Source of the DNA: a virus
Lineage: Duplodnaviria; Heunggongvirae; Uroviricota; Caudoviricetes
Virus record (IMG/VR): IMGVR_UViG_2802429253_000004
DNA: 48,941 nucleotides
Reading direction: 5' to 3' (one strand)
Part shown: piece after piece, positions 3,611 to 19,966 of the stretch
How the letters are laid out: each line of letters opens with the position of its first letter
Position numbering within the stretch: the first letter of the stretch is position 1
Made by a program: the position numbers and the translations under genes
The notes under the pieces: model-generated
Told to the model about the DNA's origin: nothing
The model's input: the letters and a program-made list of their open reading frames with translations, nothing else
Database searches by the model: none

Positions 3611-3909
3611 TGAGAACATTAGATGAGGCGATTGCCAGCCGTTCACCGGAAAGCCAGGCGCGAATTAAAGAAATGGCAGATGAGATGATTCTTGAGGTCG
3701 GCTTGCAGATGATGCGTGAAGAACTCCAGTTATCACAAAAACAGGTTGCTGAGGCGATGGGTATAAGCCAGCCAGCAGTAACAAAGCTGGAGCAGCGCGG
3801 AAATGATTTAAAGCTGGCGACATTAAAGCGTTACGTTGAAGCTATGGGAGGCAAATTAAGCCTGGATGTTGAGCTTCCCACAGGAAAACGAATAGCGTTT
3901 AACATCTGA
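3610..3909 (+). CDS. higA: Type II antitoxin, XRE-family HTH, HigA-like
   Basis: 99 aa; HTH motif LSQKQVAEAMGISQPAVTKLE; translationally coupled to the upstream toxin. Confidence 0.65.
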   Translation: MRTLDEAIASRSPESQARIKEMADEMILEVGLQMMREELQLSQKQVAEAMGISQPAVTKLEQRGNDLKLATLKRYVEAMGGKLSLDVELPTGKRIAFNI

Positions 3910-3924
3910 TCAGAACGAATGATA

Positions 3925-3952
3925 AGCCCCTGTTGCAAAGGGGCTTTTTTGT
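3925..3952 (+). terminator. Rho-independent terminator after the higBA-like pair
   Basis: Stem AGCCCCT/AGGGGCT with 7-nt loop, then TTTTTT. Confidence 0.7.
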
Positions 3953-3955
3953 GCT

Positions 3956-4072
3956 TATAGAATTATATAATTATAGATTTATATAAAAAGTGCTTTACAG
4001 GTGGGAAAAAATTTCCTATGGTTATACCCGAAACCGAGCGATACCCGCCCTGGTTAAACCGGAGATAACCCG
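3956..4072 (+). promoter_or_regulatory. Promoter/leader cassette, copy A (AT-rich iterons, -35 TTTACA, 17-bp spacer, -10 TATGGT, conserved ~45-nt leader with GGAG ribosome-binding site)
   Basis: Near-identical to 13991..14118 and 20858..20974; each copy ends at the ATG of a different gene. Confidence 0.6.
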
Positions 4073-4453
4073 ATGAGCATGATTAAAATCCGCAAAAACG
4101 CTTTCCTTAAAATTCAAACTATCCTGGCTGGTTCTGTTGGCGTGATTTGCCGTTCTTCCTCAAGCCGCATCGATGACTGCTACGATGATGAGTATCGTGT
4201 GTCCTCATGCGATGAGGCTTTAACCTGGCTGAAGGAGAATCAGGAACGTGCCCAGGTATATCTGGAAACAGAGAACGGCAATCAGATGCTGCGTATTAGC
4301 GGTCGTTATGGATTTGAAACTACATTCATGGCCTATTTTAATCAGGCTTACTTTGACAAGGAGTTGGCCTGGTACACTGATCGCATGAGCAAAAGCGAGC
4401 CAGCCCCGATTACACCGCCGAACAATAAACCATTTTTATTCCTCGTTAAGTAA
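4073..4453 (+). CDS. Hypothetical protein driven by cassette copy A
   Basis: 126-aa ORF whose ATG directly follows the conserved leader. Confidence 0.5.
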   Translation: MSMIKIRKNAFLKIQTILAGSVGVICRSSSSRIDDCYDDEYRVSSCDEALTWLKENQERAQVYLETENGNQMLRISGRYGFETTFMAYFNQAYFDKELAWYTDRMSKSEPAPITPPNNKPFLFLVK

Positions 4454-4516
4454 ACACAATGTGCAAAGTGTCATTTTGACACTTTGCGAGTGTTAATATT
4501 GTGCGAGGAGGGTGCT

Positions 4517-4789
4517 ATGACGGGTTATGAATTGAAATTATGGCGTCGTGGGATGAACTGGACGCAGGAGCGAGCCGCCGAAGAATTTGGGATATCGTTG
4601 GCTACATATAAGCGATATGAGAAGGGGGAGCCGCCGAGGGTCATTGAGATGGCCATTCGCGTTCTGTCGTTTGACGATATGGTGAAGGATCTTTCACACC
4701 TTGATAAAGACGCGATTCTGTTAAGGCTGCAAACCCTTGTATGGGAAAAGGTTAAAGTGTCGTCAGAATTGGAACAAGGGATCAAATGA
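4517..4789 (+). CDS. Small HTH-domain protein (XRE-like)
   Basis: Motif WTQERAAEEFGISLATYKRYEKGE; strong ribosome-binding site GAGGAGGG before the ATG at 4517. Confidence 0.5.
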   Translation: MTGYELKLWRRGMNWTQERAAEEFGISLATYKRYEKGEPPRVIEMAIRVLSFDDMVKDLSHLDKDAILLRLQTLVWEKVKVSSELEQGIK

Positions 4790-6070: not shown

Positions 6071-6096
6071 AGCGCCCAAATCGGGCGCTTTGTTTT
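6071..6096. terminator. Bidirectional intrinsic terminator between convergent genes
   Basis: Stem AGCGCCC/GGGCGCT with a T-rich tail on the plus strand and a U-rich tail on the minus strand. Confidence 0.65.
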
Positions 6097-7237
6097 ATGG
6101 TTTTGCACCTGCGGCCAGTTTATCCGCAGATATTTTTATCAGTTCCTGTAGTGTCCTGGCTGGCAGGTTTGCATCCAGAACGCTGAGTATGCTGTTGTGA
6201 TCAGCCTGGTCGACTACTTTGCCTGTCGGTGGTAGTAGCTTGAGCTGAGGATTCAGGTTTTCGTCAAAGCTGATAAGTGCTCTGGCGTTTCTGAGCAGAT
6301 CAAGAAGTAAGGCTGATATCACATCATCTTTAGTCATTGTTGGTAGATTTAGTGCCGCTTTAGTTTTCTCCGTCGCCTTGTCAAACTCTTTGATTAGTGT
6401 CTTGCGGTAGTTTGGTTCTGTTAATAGCCGATGATGTTCTGTTGCCGTTCGGATAATCTTTGTTTCCTGATACAGTCGGTTGTATAGCATTCGCTCGTAT
6501 TCTGCCTTTAACACGCTGCTGATAGCGTTAAAGGCTTCAATGTAGGCCAGCTTGATATCCTTCACGCCTGGACCGTCGATACTTTCCATGAGCAAGGTAA
6601 ATCCGTCTTTTGTCATGCGATAGATTGTTATTTCGCGGTCGCTTCCTTCCAGCGGTCGTTGCTCTTTAAAGAAATGACGCGCCGCAGCCGTGCGAGGAAT
6701 GCGTAATGCATCGATGGCCATTACGATGGAATTGTTTGTGGTGCTGAATGCTTGGGCAACATCGGCTGAGGTTGTGAGTGGCTCGTTGTTGCACACCTTA
6801 ATGTAATACATCGGTTTGGCATTGAGTGTATCGACAACCTCACGAGCATTGTTTGGCGAGACGGTTACGGTCGCGGCCGTTTGCGCGTTCTGGTTGAAGT
6901 AGCAGTCTTCCAGCCGTTCGAATACATCCCACGCCTGATCGGTTTCGAGCATTTTAGCGTGACGTGCAGCCCCGCGTTCGGTCCAGAGGATGAGTTTTCT
7001 AACGTTATTCGCGATGGTTTGAAAATCTCTTAAAGAGATTTTCAAACTTTGGAGATCTGTACCTTTTACAACTATGAAATGTTTTCCTTCTGTAAACCGG
7101 GACTTATTACGGTGGTGATTTCTGTGAAGACATTCGACGCTACAGCCATATAGTTTGGCAAGCAGCTCCGTGGTGATAACGGGGAGCTGGTTATGCAGGA
7201 TAGGCTGTAGGGTGTTAACGGTCGGAAGCGTTTTCAT
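6095..7237 (-). CDS. Antirepressor-like regulator with ORF6N-type N-terminal domain and Rha domain
   Basis: 380 aa; N-terminal segment ending LWTERGAARHAKMLETDQAWDVFERL, central Rha-like segment ITIYRMTKDGFTLLMESIDGPGVKDIKLAYIEAFNAI. Confidence 0.7.
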   Translation of the reverse strand: MKTLPTVNTLQPILHNQLPVITTELLAKLYGCSVECLHRNHHRNKSRFTEGKHFIVVKGTDLQSLKISLRDFQTIANNVRKLILWTERGAARHAKMLETDQAWDVFERLEDCYFNQNAQTAATVTVSPNNAREVVDTLNAKPMYYIKVCNNEPLTTSADVAQAFSTTNNSIVMAIDALRIPRTAAARHFFKEQRPLEGSDREITIYRMTKDGFTLLMESIDGPGVKDIKLAYIEAFNAISSVLKAEYERMLYNRLYQETKIIRTATEHHRLLTEPNYRKTLIKEFDKATEKTKAALNLPTMTKDDVISALLLDLLRNARALISFDENLNPQLKLLPPTGKVVDQADHNSILSVLDANLPARTLQELIKISADKLAAGAKP

Positions 7238-7425
7238 TTTGCACCTCCCATAACTACTTTGGTTACGAGGGAGATTTTTGCGTCAGAAACAGCGTTATCG
7301 TTGCTGGCGATGCGCATAGCTTCGCGCTCGATGATTTCAGCCAGGCGGAATTTATCGGCGTATGAGGCTTTCTTGAGAAGGATCTTTACGAGGTTGACGT
7401 AATAGTCATGGGGTAGGTTTGTCAT
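7234..7425 (-). CDS. Small protein translationally coupled to the antirepressor gene (positionally Icd-like)
   Basis: 63 aa; its stop overlaps the ant start (ATGA); ribosome-binding site AAGGGA on the minus strand. Confidence 0.45.
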   Translation of the reverse strand: MTNLPHDYYVNLVKILLKKASYADKFRLAEIIEREAMRIASNDNAVSDAKISLVTKVVMGGAK

Positions 7426-7587
7426 TGTGATGATTCCCTTAAAGGTTAAGGATACTCACCACCGTCAGGTTCCAATCATTGGGTGGTGAGACGTGCAGGG
7501 TTGGAACTACCGGACACAATGACGAACCGGCGAGTCTTACGACTCCCCCGCACGCCCCACCATAATTTGGGTGTAGCAGTGCTTTAC

Positions 7588-7612
7588 GCATAAAAAAACC
7601 GCTAACGCGGTA
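7588..7612 (-). terminator. Intrinsic terminator on the minus strand within the leader of the antirepressor operon (3' end of a candidate small RNA or attenuator)
   Basis: Minus-strand hairpin ACCGCG..GCGGT followed by TTTTTTT; mutually exclusive pairing segments upstream (TCTACGG / CCGTAGA / CTACGG at 7626..7663). Confidence 0.4.
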
Positions 7613-7875
7613 TGCGCCATTGTGTCTACGGGGTTCCAATCCCGACCGTAGATTTTGCTACGGCTCGGAAAGTGTCCACCAATGGCGCATTCATGTCAAT
7701 ACGGCGGGATTTTAACAGAGGCAACCACATAGCGTGGGTTTGAATGCAGGGCTTTTAATTTTCTTGATATGCTAAGAACGGGAATGTATAGTTCCTGTAA
7801 GGAACAAATCAGTCCTAAATTGTGATGTTTTGTTAAAGTTGGGAACAAGAAAAAAATTTATTATGGGGATAAAAA

Positions 7876-8415
7876 ATGATTGAACCGTCAAAAAACTCAT
7901 GTTTTTCAACCATTCACCTAATGATCATAAAAGAACTTAGGCTAGAAAGAGGTGTGCATCAAGGGATGCTAGCTCAAGCTGCTGGTAAAACACCGAACGC
8001 ATGGACAAAGATAGAGAACGGGCAGTCTGTATTAACAGTTGACGCACTTTTTGGTGCTTTCACAGCCCTTAATATTACTCCAGTGAATTTCATGTCATTG
8101 GTAGAAAATCTTATTTCCGAATTTAACCGTTATGGTTACCACTTCCATCCAGGAACCATTCCTCTGGAAGAAGATAGTCTTTTGCCTCTGATGCTGCGTT
8201 ACTTTAATAGCAAGGGGTTTGAAGCATTGAGAAATAGGCCATTCGAAAGAATTAGCATAAGCTCAATGGGGTTCTCATTTGGGGGGGGCATCCCTGTTAC
8301 TCCAACTGCTGTAATGTATTGTTGCGATGAAGCATATAGAAATTGGGTCGATAACGGCGCTGATATGGATAATCGAGATTATCTGAAGCCATTAACAGGT
8401 CTTGGACGGTTTTAA
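7876..8415 (+). CDS. XRE-type HTH protein with an uncharacterised C-terminal domain
   Basis: 179 aa; HTH near residues 20-60 (GMLAQAAGKTPNAWTKIENGQS); transcribed divergently from the antirepressor operon. Confidence 0.55.
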   Translation: MIEPSKNSCFSTIHLMIIKELRLERGVHQGMLAQAAGKTPNAWTKIENGQSVLTVDALFGAFTALNITPVNFMSLVENLISEFNRYGYHFHPGTIPLEEDSLLPLMLRYFNSKGFEALRNRPFERISISSMGFSFGGGIPVTPTAVMYCCDEAYRNWVDNGADMDNRDYLKPLTGLGRF

Positions 8416-8834
8416 TGAGTGAAGAAACAAAAAAACCGCCCTATTGAGGACGGTTCTTTCGTGCTGATCGGATTCGCAGTCCTTTCAGCATAACGTCGTT
8501 GTATAAATACAACCACGCAAGCACAAACAGCGTTCTTATTCTTACCTAACTGAATAAAATTGTCCAAATAAATTTGGTTTATTAGAGCACAAAAGCAAGT
8601 GATATTTTGTAATATGCGGTTAAGTCAATGAAAAACAATATTTTTTTATCCCTTCATTATGAAGGGGCGGCGGCGTAACATTACGCGGGGCCTTTTCGCC
8701 GATTCGCACCCGGGCACCGACTTTCAGGAAAGGATTATCCAACCGCCGTACCACGCAGGCACAAACAGCGTGCTTGCTCTCGCGTCATTTTCGTCGGTGG
8801 AGATGCCGTGGAACGGCCTGCGAGGGCCAATACA

Positions 8835-8954
8835 ATGAGGAAATACGTATGTATTTTGATCGTTGTTACTGGAGCTTTGTTTACGCCACATGGGGAGGGT
8901 TGGAAGATTACTGATAACGCTCTGAATGTGACGATAAACATTAGCAGCAAGTAG
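8835..8954 (+). CDS. Candidate 39-aa hydrophobic peptide (MRKYVCILIVVTGALFTPHGEGWKITDNALNVTINISSK)
   Basis: GAGGG ribosome-binding site 8 nt upstream; strong intrinsic terminator immediately downstream; no homolog recognised. Confidence 0.3.
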   Translation: MRKYVCILIVVTGALFTPHGEGWKITDNALNVTINISSK

Positions 8955-8959
8955 CGATT

Positions 8960-8982
8960 AGGCCCCTTCGGGGGCCTTTTTT
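8960..8982 (+). terminator. Strong rho-independent terminator
   Basis: Stem AGGCCCC/GGGGCCT with loop TTCG, then TTTTTT. Confidence 0.8.
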
Positions 8983-9204: not shown

Positions 9205-9453
9205 TTACTTCTGGTTGTATTGAGCCTTGAGTAACTCAAAAGATTTTGTCAGCACTTCTTTCAATGACATATCCATTGAGCTGGCGAATGTTTTGTACTC
9301 ACGTTTAAATTCAGGGTCGACGTTAAACGCCATTTGTGCTCCACCTGATTTGGTTCTGGTCGGCGTTTCAGTCGGGTCGAAAACCTGCGGTTGTTCGATT
9401 GATGGCGGTACGCCTTTGCTGTTCTTCTTTGGTGGTTTTGATGGTGCGGCCAT
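9205..9453 (-). CDS. Small partition protein, ribbon-helix-helix ParG-like centromere-binding protein
   Basis: 82 aa directly downstream of parA; unstructured basic N-terminus then an RHH-like segment MAFNVDPEFKREYKTFASSMDMSLKEVL. Confidence 0.6.
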   Translation of the reverse strand: MAAPSKPPKKNSKGVPPSIEQPQVFDPTETPTRTKSGGAQMAFNVDPEFKREYKTFASSMDMSLKEVLTKSFELLKAQYNQK

Positions 9454-9465
9454 GTGTATCCCCTC

Positions 9466-9497
9466 TTATATAAATCTATAAAACTATAATTATATAT
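9466..9497. repeat. AT-rich 15-bp iteron pair (TATAGAWTTATATAA family, inverted orientation) downstream of the partition operon
   Basis: TATATAAATCTATA and AAACTATAATTATATA; same motif family as at 3956, 10172, 10246, 13991, 15218, 19728 and 20858. Confidence 0.7.
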
Positions 9498-10165
9498 TAC
9501 GCGGCAGTAGTCAGAGCCTCAAGCTGGTTGATAATCCCCTGAATAACGTCGTCTGCCTTTTTGCGTGGCGCAACGTATGAACACTCAATGAGGCTTAAGC
9601 CCTTATCCTGAGCTTTGCTCAGAGCTGGCTTGTGGGGAATGTACTTATCGACAACAAAGTATGGCGTATTAGCCAGGTACTCTTGGGCTTCGATGTAGTC
9701 AGCTTCGTTTTCAGCCGCGCCGGAAAACACCATGCAAATTTTCTTGATTGGTACACCCTTTTTAACGATGCCGTGAGCTGTGTTAACGGTGGTTTCCAGG
9801 TCATCGGTAGAGAATCTGGTTGGCAAAATAACCATATCCAGAAATTCAGAGAGCTTCGGTACTGATTCAGATGCGTAGGCACCGCCATCGACGATAACCA
9901 GGTCGTATACTTCTGATTCGATGATTTTCTGGACTTGTGATGGTGTGCCGCACGGCTGCGCCGCGATTGCTGGTTCGATATTGTTGGCCATTCTGCGTTG
10001 TACCCAACGCGTTACCGTTCCGTTAAGCACATCCATATCGATCAGGCATACATTCCAGCCAGCCTTTGCATAAGCAACTGCTAAAGCACGAGCAATGGTT
10101 GATTTGGTTACGCCGCCTTTTCCGTTGAAAATACCTACAGATATAGTCATTTGTCGAGACTCCAT
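9497..10165 (-). CDS. parA: Partition ATPase ParA, small type Ib (ParF/Soj-like)
   Basis: 222 aa; deviant Walker A GKGGVTKST near the N-terminus. Confidence 0.85.
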   Translation of the reverse strand: MESRQMTISVGIFNGKGGVTKSTIARALAVAYAKAGWNVCLIDMDVLNGTVTRWVQRRMANNIEPAIAAQPCGTPSQVQKIIESEVYDLVIVDGGAYASESVPKLSEFLDMVILPTRFSTDDLETTVNTAHGIVKKGVPIKKICMVFSGAAENEADYIEAQEYLANTPYFVVDKYIPHKPALSKAQDKGLSLIECSYVAPRKKADDVIQGIINQLEALTTAA

Positions 10166-19890: not shown

Positions 19891-19966
19891 GGCCCCTTAG
19901 CTCAGTGGTTAGAGCAGGCGACTCATAATCGCACGGTCACTGGTTCAAGTCCGGTAGGGGCCACCA
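19891..19966 (+). tRNA. tRNA with CAU anticodon (tRNA-Met, or tRNA-Ile2 if lysidine-modified)
   Basis: 76-nt cloverleaf: acceptor GGCCCCT/AGGGGCC, D-arm GCTC-AGTGGTTA-GAGC, anticodon loop CTCATAA, T-arm ACTGG-TTCAAGT-CCGGT, encoded CCA. Confidence 0.85.

Follow-up and report, generated by a model that had tools for sequence, protein, structure and literature searches.

Between its immunity genes and its partition operon, the tailed-phage genome IMGVR_UViG_2802429253_000004, analysed here over its full length of 48,941 nucleotides (the window), very probably carries an unannotated, divergent copy of the enterobacterial timPR (ryfA/ryfB) type I toxin-antitoxin system. The element is a circular phage-plasmid of the myovirus type, about 48 kb in size. 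A cmscan search of the whole window against Rfam matched positions 8686-8982 of the plus strand to ryfA (RF00126) at 123.9 bits (gathering threshold 80, E = 2.8e-31), and this match was full-length, spanning model positions 1-296 of 296. The ryfA RNA has been renamed timP mRNA, with a 38-aa toxic inner-membrane protein encoded at +145 to +261 (Andresen et al., PMC7667032). TimR, a small RNA (sRNA) from a divergent gene, represses its translation and holds in its 5' region 18 nt complementary to the timP 5' untranslated region, and in all enterobacterial homologs a complementary sequence and then a terminator are found upstream on the opposite strand (PMC7667032). The layout of the window matches the published one, with an open reading frame (ORF) at +148 from an inferred transcript start at 8688, as compared with +145 in Salmonella.

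A first-pass annotation, made from the sequence alone, had suggested a type I toxin-antitoxin or small membrane peptide locus at this place, which is supported by the Rfam match, by a TimP-like peptide and by a divergent antisense gene. It had also stated that the peptide matched no family it could name. This does not hold, as TimP is the best NCBIfam match of the peptide and the RNA is Rfam's ryfA. By homology, we place high confidence in the identity and the regulatory logic of the locus as a timPR-type module, and from the same homology we infer both toxicity of its peptide and repression by its antitoxin. The evidence consists of homology in sequence and structure, of conservation and covariation, and of selection on the coding region, with transcript ends that are inferred. 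What is new is a divergent, unannotated family member in a new genomic setting; the family itself is known, and mobile TimP is not wholly unrecorded, since NCBI already names a copy on an Erwinia plasmid.

The toxin candidate is the product of the ORF at 8835-8954, MRKYVCILIVVTGALFTPHGEGWKITDNALNVTINISSK. This ORF had been called together with a ribosome-binding site, and both proved sound: it has 39 codons, and a GAGGG Shine-Dalgarno sequence (8822-8826) lies 8 nt ahead of its ATG at 8835. GTG 8808, the first codon of the longer listed ORF 8808-8954, was considered as the start and rejected, being in frame only in the window. In relatives, a 1-nt difference puts a stop in the GTG 8808 frame, and so ATG 8835 is the start. 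Judged by hydropathy, the N-terminus (residues 1-20) is signal-like, with basic MRK and then the hydrophobic YVCILIVVTGALF; the hydrophobicity first noticed there was borne out by a mean Kyte-Doolittle value of 2.61 for residues 4-16, versus 2.22 in E. coli TimP. A very strong intrinsic terminator had been reported immediately after the ORF, and we recovered it with a 7-pair stem, six of the pairs G-C, ahead of its T run.

The NCBIfam TimP model (NF040796) remains the best match of the peptide, which is 31% identical to E. coli TimP (E = 8e-6) and 50% identical to the 39-aa peptide named TimP in Erwinia (E = 2e-14). The Erwinia peptide passes the TimP cut-off at 49.5 bits; together with its 50% identity, this bridges the homology of the window peptide to TimP. 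In a large protein collection, the phage-plasmid form of the peptide appears only as two unnamed entries, both from raw-read assemblies. A 52%-identical stretch in an Acidobacteriota metagenome-assembled genome was the sole match of a peptide-pattern scan over one genome per species, and we took it as chance.

The ryfA RNA was first described as an sRNA, and it is reported to affect stress resistance and virulence in uropathogenic and avian pathogenic E. coli (PMC8205139, PMC13188913). The transcript could therefore be chiefly a non-coding regulatory RNA, with the small ORF incidental, but we consider this very improbable. The ORF, whose conservation in relatives the first-pass annotation had left to be checked, is intact in all the related loci examined, where neither its position nor its length changes despite up to ~30% nucleotide divergence. 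Among six divergent mobile copies, dN/dS ranges from 0.06 to 0.45, and nucleotide changes in the ORF fall mostly at codon positions 1 and 3 and are conservative in amino acids. These values indicate purifying selection on the ORF. On neither strand of 8412-8950 does any other ORF keep its position or length among the relatives. Moreover, the toxicity of timPR in Salmonella depends on the timP start codon (PMC7667032).

Further support for the timPR identity comes from the folding of the leader. Work from the Holmqvist laboratory has established that timP translation needs a pseudoknot between stem-loops SL1 and SL3 (sites 1 and 3) and a contact of site 2 with site 4 that opens SL4, which otherwise sequesters the Shine-Dalgarno sequence; TimR binds SL2 and disrupts this active fold (PMC11228461, PMC13000454). 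We aligned 12 distinct leader sequences, one from the window, nine from further mobile copies and two from chromosomal copies in E. coli. RNAalifold recovered SL1-SL4 from these homologs, with compensatory changes in 13 of 38 pairs; pair 132-145 of SL4, for instance, is U-A in seven sequences and C-G in five. Sites 1 and 3 form 7/7 Watson-Crick pairs in the window, and all seven pairs form in 12/12 sequences, two of them with compensatory changes: the paired sequences are CACCGAC/GUCGGUG in the window versus CGCUGGC/GCCAGUG in E. coli. The site 2-4 contact keeps 5/6 published pair positions in 12/12 sequences, and it also appears in the minimum free energy (MFE) fold of the single sequence. 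Both contacts are specific to their register, as 93.6% of the cells of the pseudoknot and site 2-4 helices together are paired, versus 21-61% with the partner slid. The SL4 loop (8820-8823) is a GNRA tetraloop, GCGA in the window and GUAA in most mobile relatives, while the loop of the E. coli chromosomal copies has 7-8 nt.

The antitoxin gene would be read from the minus strand as an RNA of ~105 nt. Its predicted fold has an MFE of -44.7 kcal/mol (z = -6.0) and consists of three hairpins plus a terminator. Rfam offers no family for this RNA, the best match being RNAI with 27.8 bits against a gathering threshold of 47, and the E. coli chromosomal timR likewise gave nothing above threshold. As Rfam has no TimR family, the homology to timR rests on architecture and alignment. 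The predicted RNA aligns with the TimR of the E. coli chromosome and of the Erwinia plasmid, sharing a conserved hairpin, the terminator and compensatory changes. The hairpin has the consensus GCUGR-AAGGMCCGCGAAYC-NCAGC, and its compensatory changes are found at column pairs 51-69, 54-66 and 56-64. The terminator at 8427-8462, a single hairpin between an A run and a T run, is kept in all TimR homologs; on the minus strand it went unreported by the terminator scan and is evident in the fold. The predicted promoter is similarly conserved. At its -35 box, the plus-strand core GTCCA is invariant in 10 related loci within a highly variable spacer, and its -10 box aligns with TAAAAT in relatives around an invariant plus-strand TTAC core. 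For timP, the putative -10 box aligns with TAAAAT/TAATAT in relatives, with GTAAnAT invariant. We also observed a perfect hairpin, CCCTTCA-TTA-TGAAGGG at 8650-8666, which is preceded by a T run and overlaps the putative timP -35 box. This hairpin is present only in the spacer type shared by the window and two related loci, L003 and L002.

The two genes are tied together by a direct repeat. The first-pass annotation had listed blocks shared between two segments, and pattern matches set against chance expectation found them where it had placed them. The 21-nt block CCACGCA(A/G)GCACAAACAGCGT has just two sites in the window, one at 8513-8533 and one at 8751-8771 (chance expectation 0.00); as the pattern CCACGCARGCACAAACAGCGT, it gave these two matches, both on the plus strand, and none other in the window. 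The repeat extends to 31 nt (8512-8542 versus 8750-8780) at 87% identity. A second block, GATTCGCA, has its sole window sites at 8471-8478 and 8701-8708 and is not significant alone (two or more matches in 56 of 100 shuffles). The composite GATTCGCA-N(3-20)-CTTTCAG matches solely at 8471-8488 and 8701-8727, with 0.00 expected. With the antitoxin read from the opposite strand, the direct repeat in DNA becomes antisense complementarity between two RNAs. The repeat thus stands as first described, while its upstream copy, which had been left without an identity, is here read as the minus-strand timR/ryfB homolog.

Blocks GATTCGCA and CTTTCAG sit, in antisense, within the conserved TimR hairpin (8463-8489). 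We considered them as a second co-evolving contact between TimR and timP and rejected this, given that complementarity between the TimR hairpin and SL1 is 4-9 nt long and no better in cognate than in non-cognate pairs. These short shared blocks fit a common ancestry of timR and the timP leader, or a motif kept for TimR's own fold.

The predicted duplex between TimR and timP of the window has 21 contiguous pairs, including one G-U, with an energy of -40.7 kcal/mol, and it begins at the predicted 5' end of the sRNA. Its target, at +63 to +84 from the inferred timP start, agrees with the binding site mapped to the SL2 loop in Salmonella (PMC11228461). We compared it with related loci from phage-plasmids in E. 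coli genomes, from IMG/VR contigs and from an Erwinia plasmid contig, and also with that of the E. coli chromosome. Ten variants of the SL2 loop and TimR seed were present among them, and in each locus the timR variant equals that of its own timP. A search for the duplicated block in related elements, as the first-pass annotation had proposed, found it in matching form within each relative locus. In a 9 by 9 matrix, cognate duplexes ranged from -31 to -41 kcal/mol with 12-21 contiguous pairs, as compared to a non-cognate mean of -20, and each TimR paired best with its own timP across the nine variants. The tenth variant, that of the Erwinia plasmid, has an 18-nt block common to timR and its own timP leader. 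TimR of the E. coli chromosome reached -26.0 kcal/mol against timP of the window, via the conserved stem of SL2 and not its loop. In the opposite combination, TimR of the window against chromosomal timP, the predicted energy was -19.8 kcal/mol; both duplexes are weak beside the cognate ones (-40.7 and -34.4 kcal/mol). Cross-reaction is probable between the two E. coli sub-types, ACAAACAG and ACAAGCAG.

Matched variants of this kind could be produced either by selection for pairing or by gene conversion, and the latter speaks against our interpretation in that conversion might preserve the match between the direct repeats even if RNA pairing were not selected. We favor a functional interaction because compensatory mutations worked experimentally in Salmonella (PMC7667032). 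The antisense seed and the SL2 loop make up a specificity determinant that is hypervariable, a point of relevance to cross-talk among type I toxin-antitoxin systems resident in the same cell.

These features suggest how the locus may work. The plus strand would give an mRNA of ~295 nt (~8688-8982) encoding a 39-aa peptide whose N-terminus is basic and which has a hydrophobic, signal-like segment. Homology suggests that this peptide would insert into the inner membrane and make it leaky; toxicity and permeabilisation of the inner membrane have been shown for the timPR peptide of Salmonella, as has the block of its translation by TimR (PMC7667032). By analogy with that system, translation would occur only in a conformation held by two long-range contacts. 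The first would be the pseudoknot of SL1 site 1 (8715-8721) with SL3 site 3 (8793-8799), and in the second, site 2 (8745-8749) would pair with site 4 (8813-8817), opening SL4 and freeing the Shine-Dalgarno sequence. A divergent minus-strand sRNA (~8533 to 8429) would carry, in its first 21-22 nt, the complement of the 5' arm and loop of SL2. Its binding to SL2 may then disrupt the active conformation and block translation. Coordinates of all features are collected in Table 1.

Table 1. Features of the timPR-like locus and of the immunity module, in positions of the window.
Feature	Position	Strand	Basis or detail
timP-like toxin mRNA (Rfam ryfA, RF00126)	8686..8982	+	cmscan, 123.9 bits; transcript ~295 nt, ~8688-8982
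Putative timP promoter (-35 TTCATT 8653-8658, -10 TAACAT 8676-8681)	8653..8681	+	read from sequence
SL1, with pseudoknot site 1 CACCGAC (8715-8721)	8688..8740	+	RNAalifold consensus
Site 2 GCCGU, complement of site 4 ACGGC (8813-8817)	8745..8749	+	alignment; also in MFE fold
TimR target (8750-8771) and SL2 (8755-8777)	8750..8777	+	duplex prediction, RNAalifold
SL3, with pseudoknot site 3 GUCGGUG (8793-8799)	8780..8811	+	RNAalifold, pairing test
Site 4 and SL4 (GGCCU-GCGA-GGGCC), Shine-Dalgarno GAGGG (8822-8826) sequestered in 3' arm	8813..8828	+	RNAalifold
ORF, 39-aa TimP-like small hydrophobic peptide	8835..8954	+	sub-threshold NF040796 match, conservation, dN/dS
Intrinsic terminator of timP mRNA	8960..8982	+	stem 8960-8977, UUCG loop, T run to 8982; fits terminator of ryfA model
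Predicted timR-like -35 box TGGACA	8561..8566	-	promoter scan
Predicted timR-like -10 box TAAGAAT	8538..8544	-	promoter scan (AAGAAT, 17-nt spacer)
timR-like antitoxin sRNA, ~105 nt	8429..8533	-	both ends predicted; 5' end inferred from -10 box
5' seed of TimR-like RNA, complementary to timP SL2 (8750-8771)	8512..8533	-	direct repeat, predicted duplex
Conserved TimR hairpin GCUGA-AAGGACUGCGAAUCC-GAUCAGC	8463..8489	-	fold, alignment
Bidirectional terminator of timR (-) and of helix-turn-helix (HTH) gene 7876-8415 (+)	8427..8462	both	hairpin AACCGUCC/GGGCGGUU, then U7 on minus strand
isrK	7592-7664	-	67.7 bits
C4 antisense RNA	7479-7567	-	77.8 bits
63-aa ORF of immunity module	7234-7425	-	
380-aa ORF6N/antirepressor-like ORF	6095-7237	-	

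The genomic setting is that of a phage-plasmid family with close relatives that include the Yersinia phages vB_YpM_39, 41 and 44. The annotation of one relative, pATCC25922_1, lists a terminase, a portal, a capsid, a contractile-tail module, holins, RepA, ParA and a RelE/ParE pair. In the window, the timPR locus lies between a C4/isrK-antirepressor immunity module and the par operon. The immunity module resembles immI of phage P1 and occupies 6095-7664 of the minus strand. Elsewhere in the window is a tRNA gene at 19891-19963 (plus strand, 65.6 bits), the counterpart of which is annotated as tRNA-Ile in pATCC25922_1.

The par region was found at 95-99% identity in 71 of 5426 complete E. coli genomes, and essentially all of these carriers, about 70 (70-72), also have the timPR locus. 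The latter is more divergent than par, at 85-95% identity among the E. coli carriers, and compared with its neighbours it is either mosaic or evolving fast. The promoter spacer (8550-8685) is replaced in one sub-group, while the par operon (9205-10165) stays 95-99% identical. A further relative, IMGVR_UViG_2695420618_000004 (3660-4720), encodes a ParA of 95% identity, with par leading directly to C4/isrK and with neither timPR nor the HTH gene, which makes timPR an accessory cassette in the phage-plasmid family. The same mobile timPR clade was found on an 89.9-kb IMG/VR contig with RepB, zeta-toxin and RepL/Icd-like genes, and on the 70-kb Erwinia contig beside a TraI relaxase gene and a PLD-family gene.

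Several observations weigh against an intact timPR module with a role in addiction. The peptide scores 20.8 bits against NF040796 (E = 3.4e-4), short of the cut-off of 45, and the TimP variants of all the phage-plasmids score 13-25.5 bits. The putative timP promoter is weak, with 7/12 consensus matches, and was not reported by the promoter scan. In the leader, the site 2-4 helix has 5 bp, not 6, the sixth pair being lost in the mobile clade, and the pairing of sites 1 and 2 in the inactive state amounts to just 3-4 bp (-5.7 to -6.8 kcal/mol) with an uncertain register (E. coli, by the same extraction: -2.5). Deletion of timR in Salmonella, at native expression, left growth unimpaired (PMC7667032), which makes the strength of killing at native levels uncertain, and the plasmid already carries a RelE/ParE-type toxin-antitoxin system.

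Could the locus then be an inert relic, a decaying copy of the chromosomal timPR without current function? The distance of the peptide from the family cut-off, the weak promoter and the absence of the locus from one relative (IMGVR_UViG_2695420618_000004) would be in keeping with decay. Nevertheless, both genes, their terminators and their promoter cores are kept, the long-range RNA contacts are maintained via compensatory changes, the recognition sequences change in step across ten variants, and nearly every E. coli member of the phage-plasmid family has the locus. Given these patterns, we regard a relic as the least probable of the readings considered here, slightly below that of a non-coding RNA.

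If the locus is a working timPR-type module, its most likely role may be post-segregational killing (addiction) that stabilises the phage-plasmid, to which we give a little less than an even chance. We rank this role first because the locus adjoins par on an extrachromosomal prophage and because timP mRNA is longer-lived than TimR in Salmonella (PMC7667032). The same module might instead serve in abortive infection or phage exclusion, in stress-induced dormancy, or in the timing of lysis at induction, which we think unlikely though far from negligible. Abortive infection and persistence have both been connected with type I toxins (PMC13000454), native-level TimP in Salmonella causes only mild envelope stress (PMC7667032), and a plasmid that has RelE/ParE is already provided with an addiction system. 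The position between the C4/isrK-antirepressor module and par means that the locus could equally belong to the phage side. On the other hand, no phage-sensing input is indicated by the sequence, the locus directly adjoins the partition operon, and no phage genes are in view around the Erwinia relative, whose plasmid contig bears a relaxase gene.

Taking addiction as the preferred role, we tentatively suggest a broader proposition, which we hold to be possible but somewhat doubtful: that these loci form a distinct mobile timPR clade on phage-plasmids and conjugative plasmids, overlooked by the Prokaryotic Genome Annotation Pipeline (PGAP) and in the searched literature, whose SL2-loop/seed pairs are mutually orthogonal and insulated from the chromosomal TimR of the host, and which acts as a true addiction system. 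Neither gene is annotated in any of the records inspected. This gap probably arises because the peptide falls under the NCBIfam cut-off and because Rfam lacks a TimR model, and it spans ~70 complete genomes of E. coli, among them that of the reference strain ATCC 25922, as well as three Yersinia phage records. In the literature searched, no paper linked ryfA or timPR to phage-plasmids and none named these Yersinia phages; the timPR papers and the T1TAdb paper make no mention of plasmid or prophage copies.

If the proposition is true, an orthogonal mobile addiction clade would provide the first clear biological function for timPR, and its members would constitute a natural covarying set that gives independent support to the pseudoknot-switch model. 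For the pseudoknot and the site 2-4 contact, both described in 2024-2026, natural covariation is available from the mobile copies. A timPR copy that neighbours the partition genes on an extrachromosomal prophage is also a tractable setting for tests of post-segregational killing.

Among known systems, the closest comparison is with the chromosomal timPR of Salmonella Typhimurium and E. coli, located between sseA and sseB. Like the window locus, it combines a ~300-nt RF00126 mRNA with a 38-41-aa ORF at ~+145, whose product has a basic and then hydrophobic N-terminus, and a divergent sRNA that pairs with SL2 through its 5' end and terminates at an intrinsic terminator. Also shared are SL1-SL4, the SL1-SL3 pseudoknot, the site 2-4 contact, the Shine-Dalgarno sequence within SL4 and the TimR hairpin. 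The window locus differs in its place on a phage-plasmid rather than between sseA and sseB, and its DNA identity to the chromosomal copies, ~73%, is confined to the leader. Its peptide differs from chromosomal E. coli TimP both in sequence and in falling under the NCBIfam cut-off. The SL2 loop and TimR seed are wholly different (CAAACAGCG in the window versus CCCCACAG in E. coli), and the complementarity is longer, at 21-22 nt versus 18. The SL4 stem of the window is shorter and closed by the GNRA loop, and its site 2-4 helix lacks one of the six chromosomal base pairs.

The closest named peptide is TimP of Erwinia sp. OLCASP19, from the 70-kb contig, which has 39 aa and the same C-terminal motif as the window peptide, GW-I-NxxxxVTIN. 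This locus likewise resides on a mobile element and has its own cognate timR copy with the 18-nt match; its ryfA score is 251 bits. Unlike the window locus, it is carried by a plasmid of the conjugative type, uses another recognition sequence and encodes a peptide above the TimP cut-off.

The hok/sok system (parB of plasmid R1) is, like the window locus, a plasmid-borne type I system that combines a small membrane toxin with control by mRNA folding and an antisense RNA, and it is the model for post-segregational killing, the role proposed here. Sok is a cis-encoded RNA that overlaps its target and works via the mok frame, whereas the window antitoxin would be a separate divergent gene; hok mRNA needs 3' processing, whereas timP-type mRNAs become active through refolding and without being processed (PMC11228461). 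No hok or sok match from Rfam was found anywhere in the window, and no conserved upstream ORF of the mok kind was found across the relatives. The E. coli systems tisB/istR-1, shoB/ohsC and zorO/orzO each have a separate divergent antitoxin sRNA, ~18-20 nt of complementarity to the toxin leader and a short direct repeat in DNA. Their gene layout is that of the window, while their sequences and peptides are unrelated to it, and mRNAs of the tisB, shoB and zorO types are activated by 5' processing or through standby sites rather than by a pseudoknot switch.

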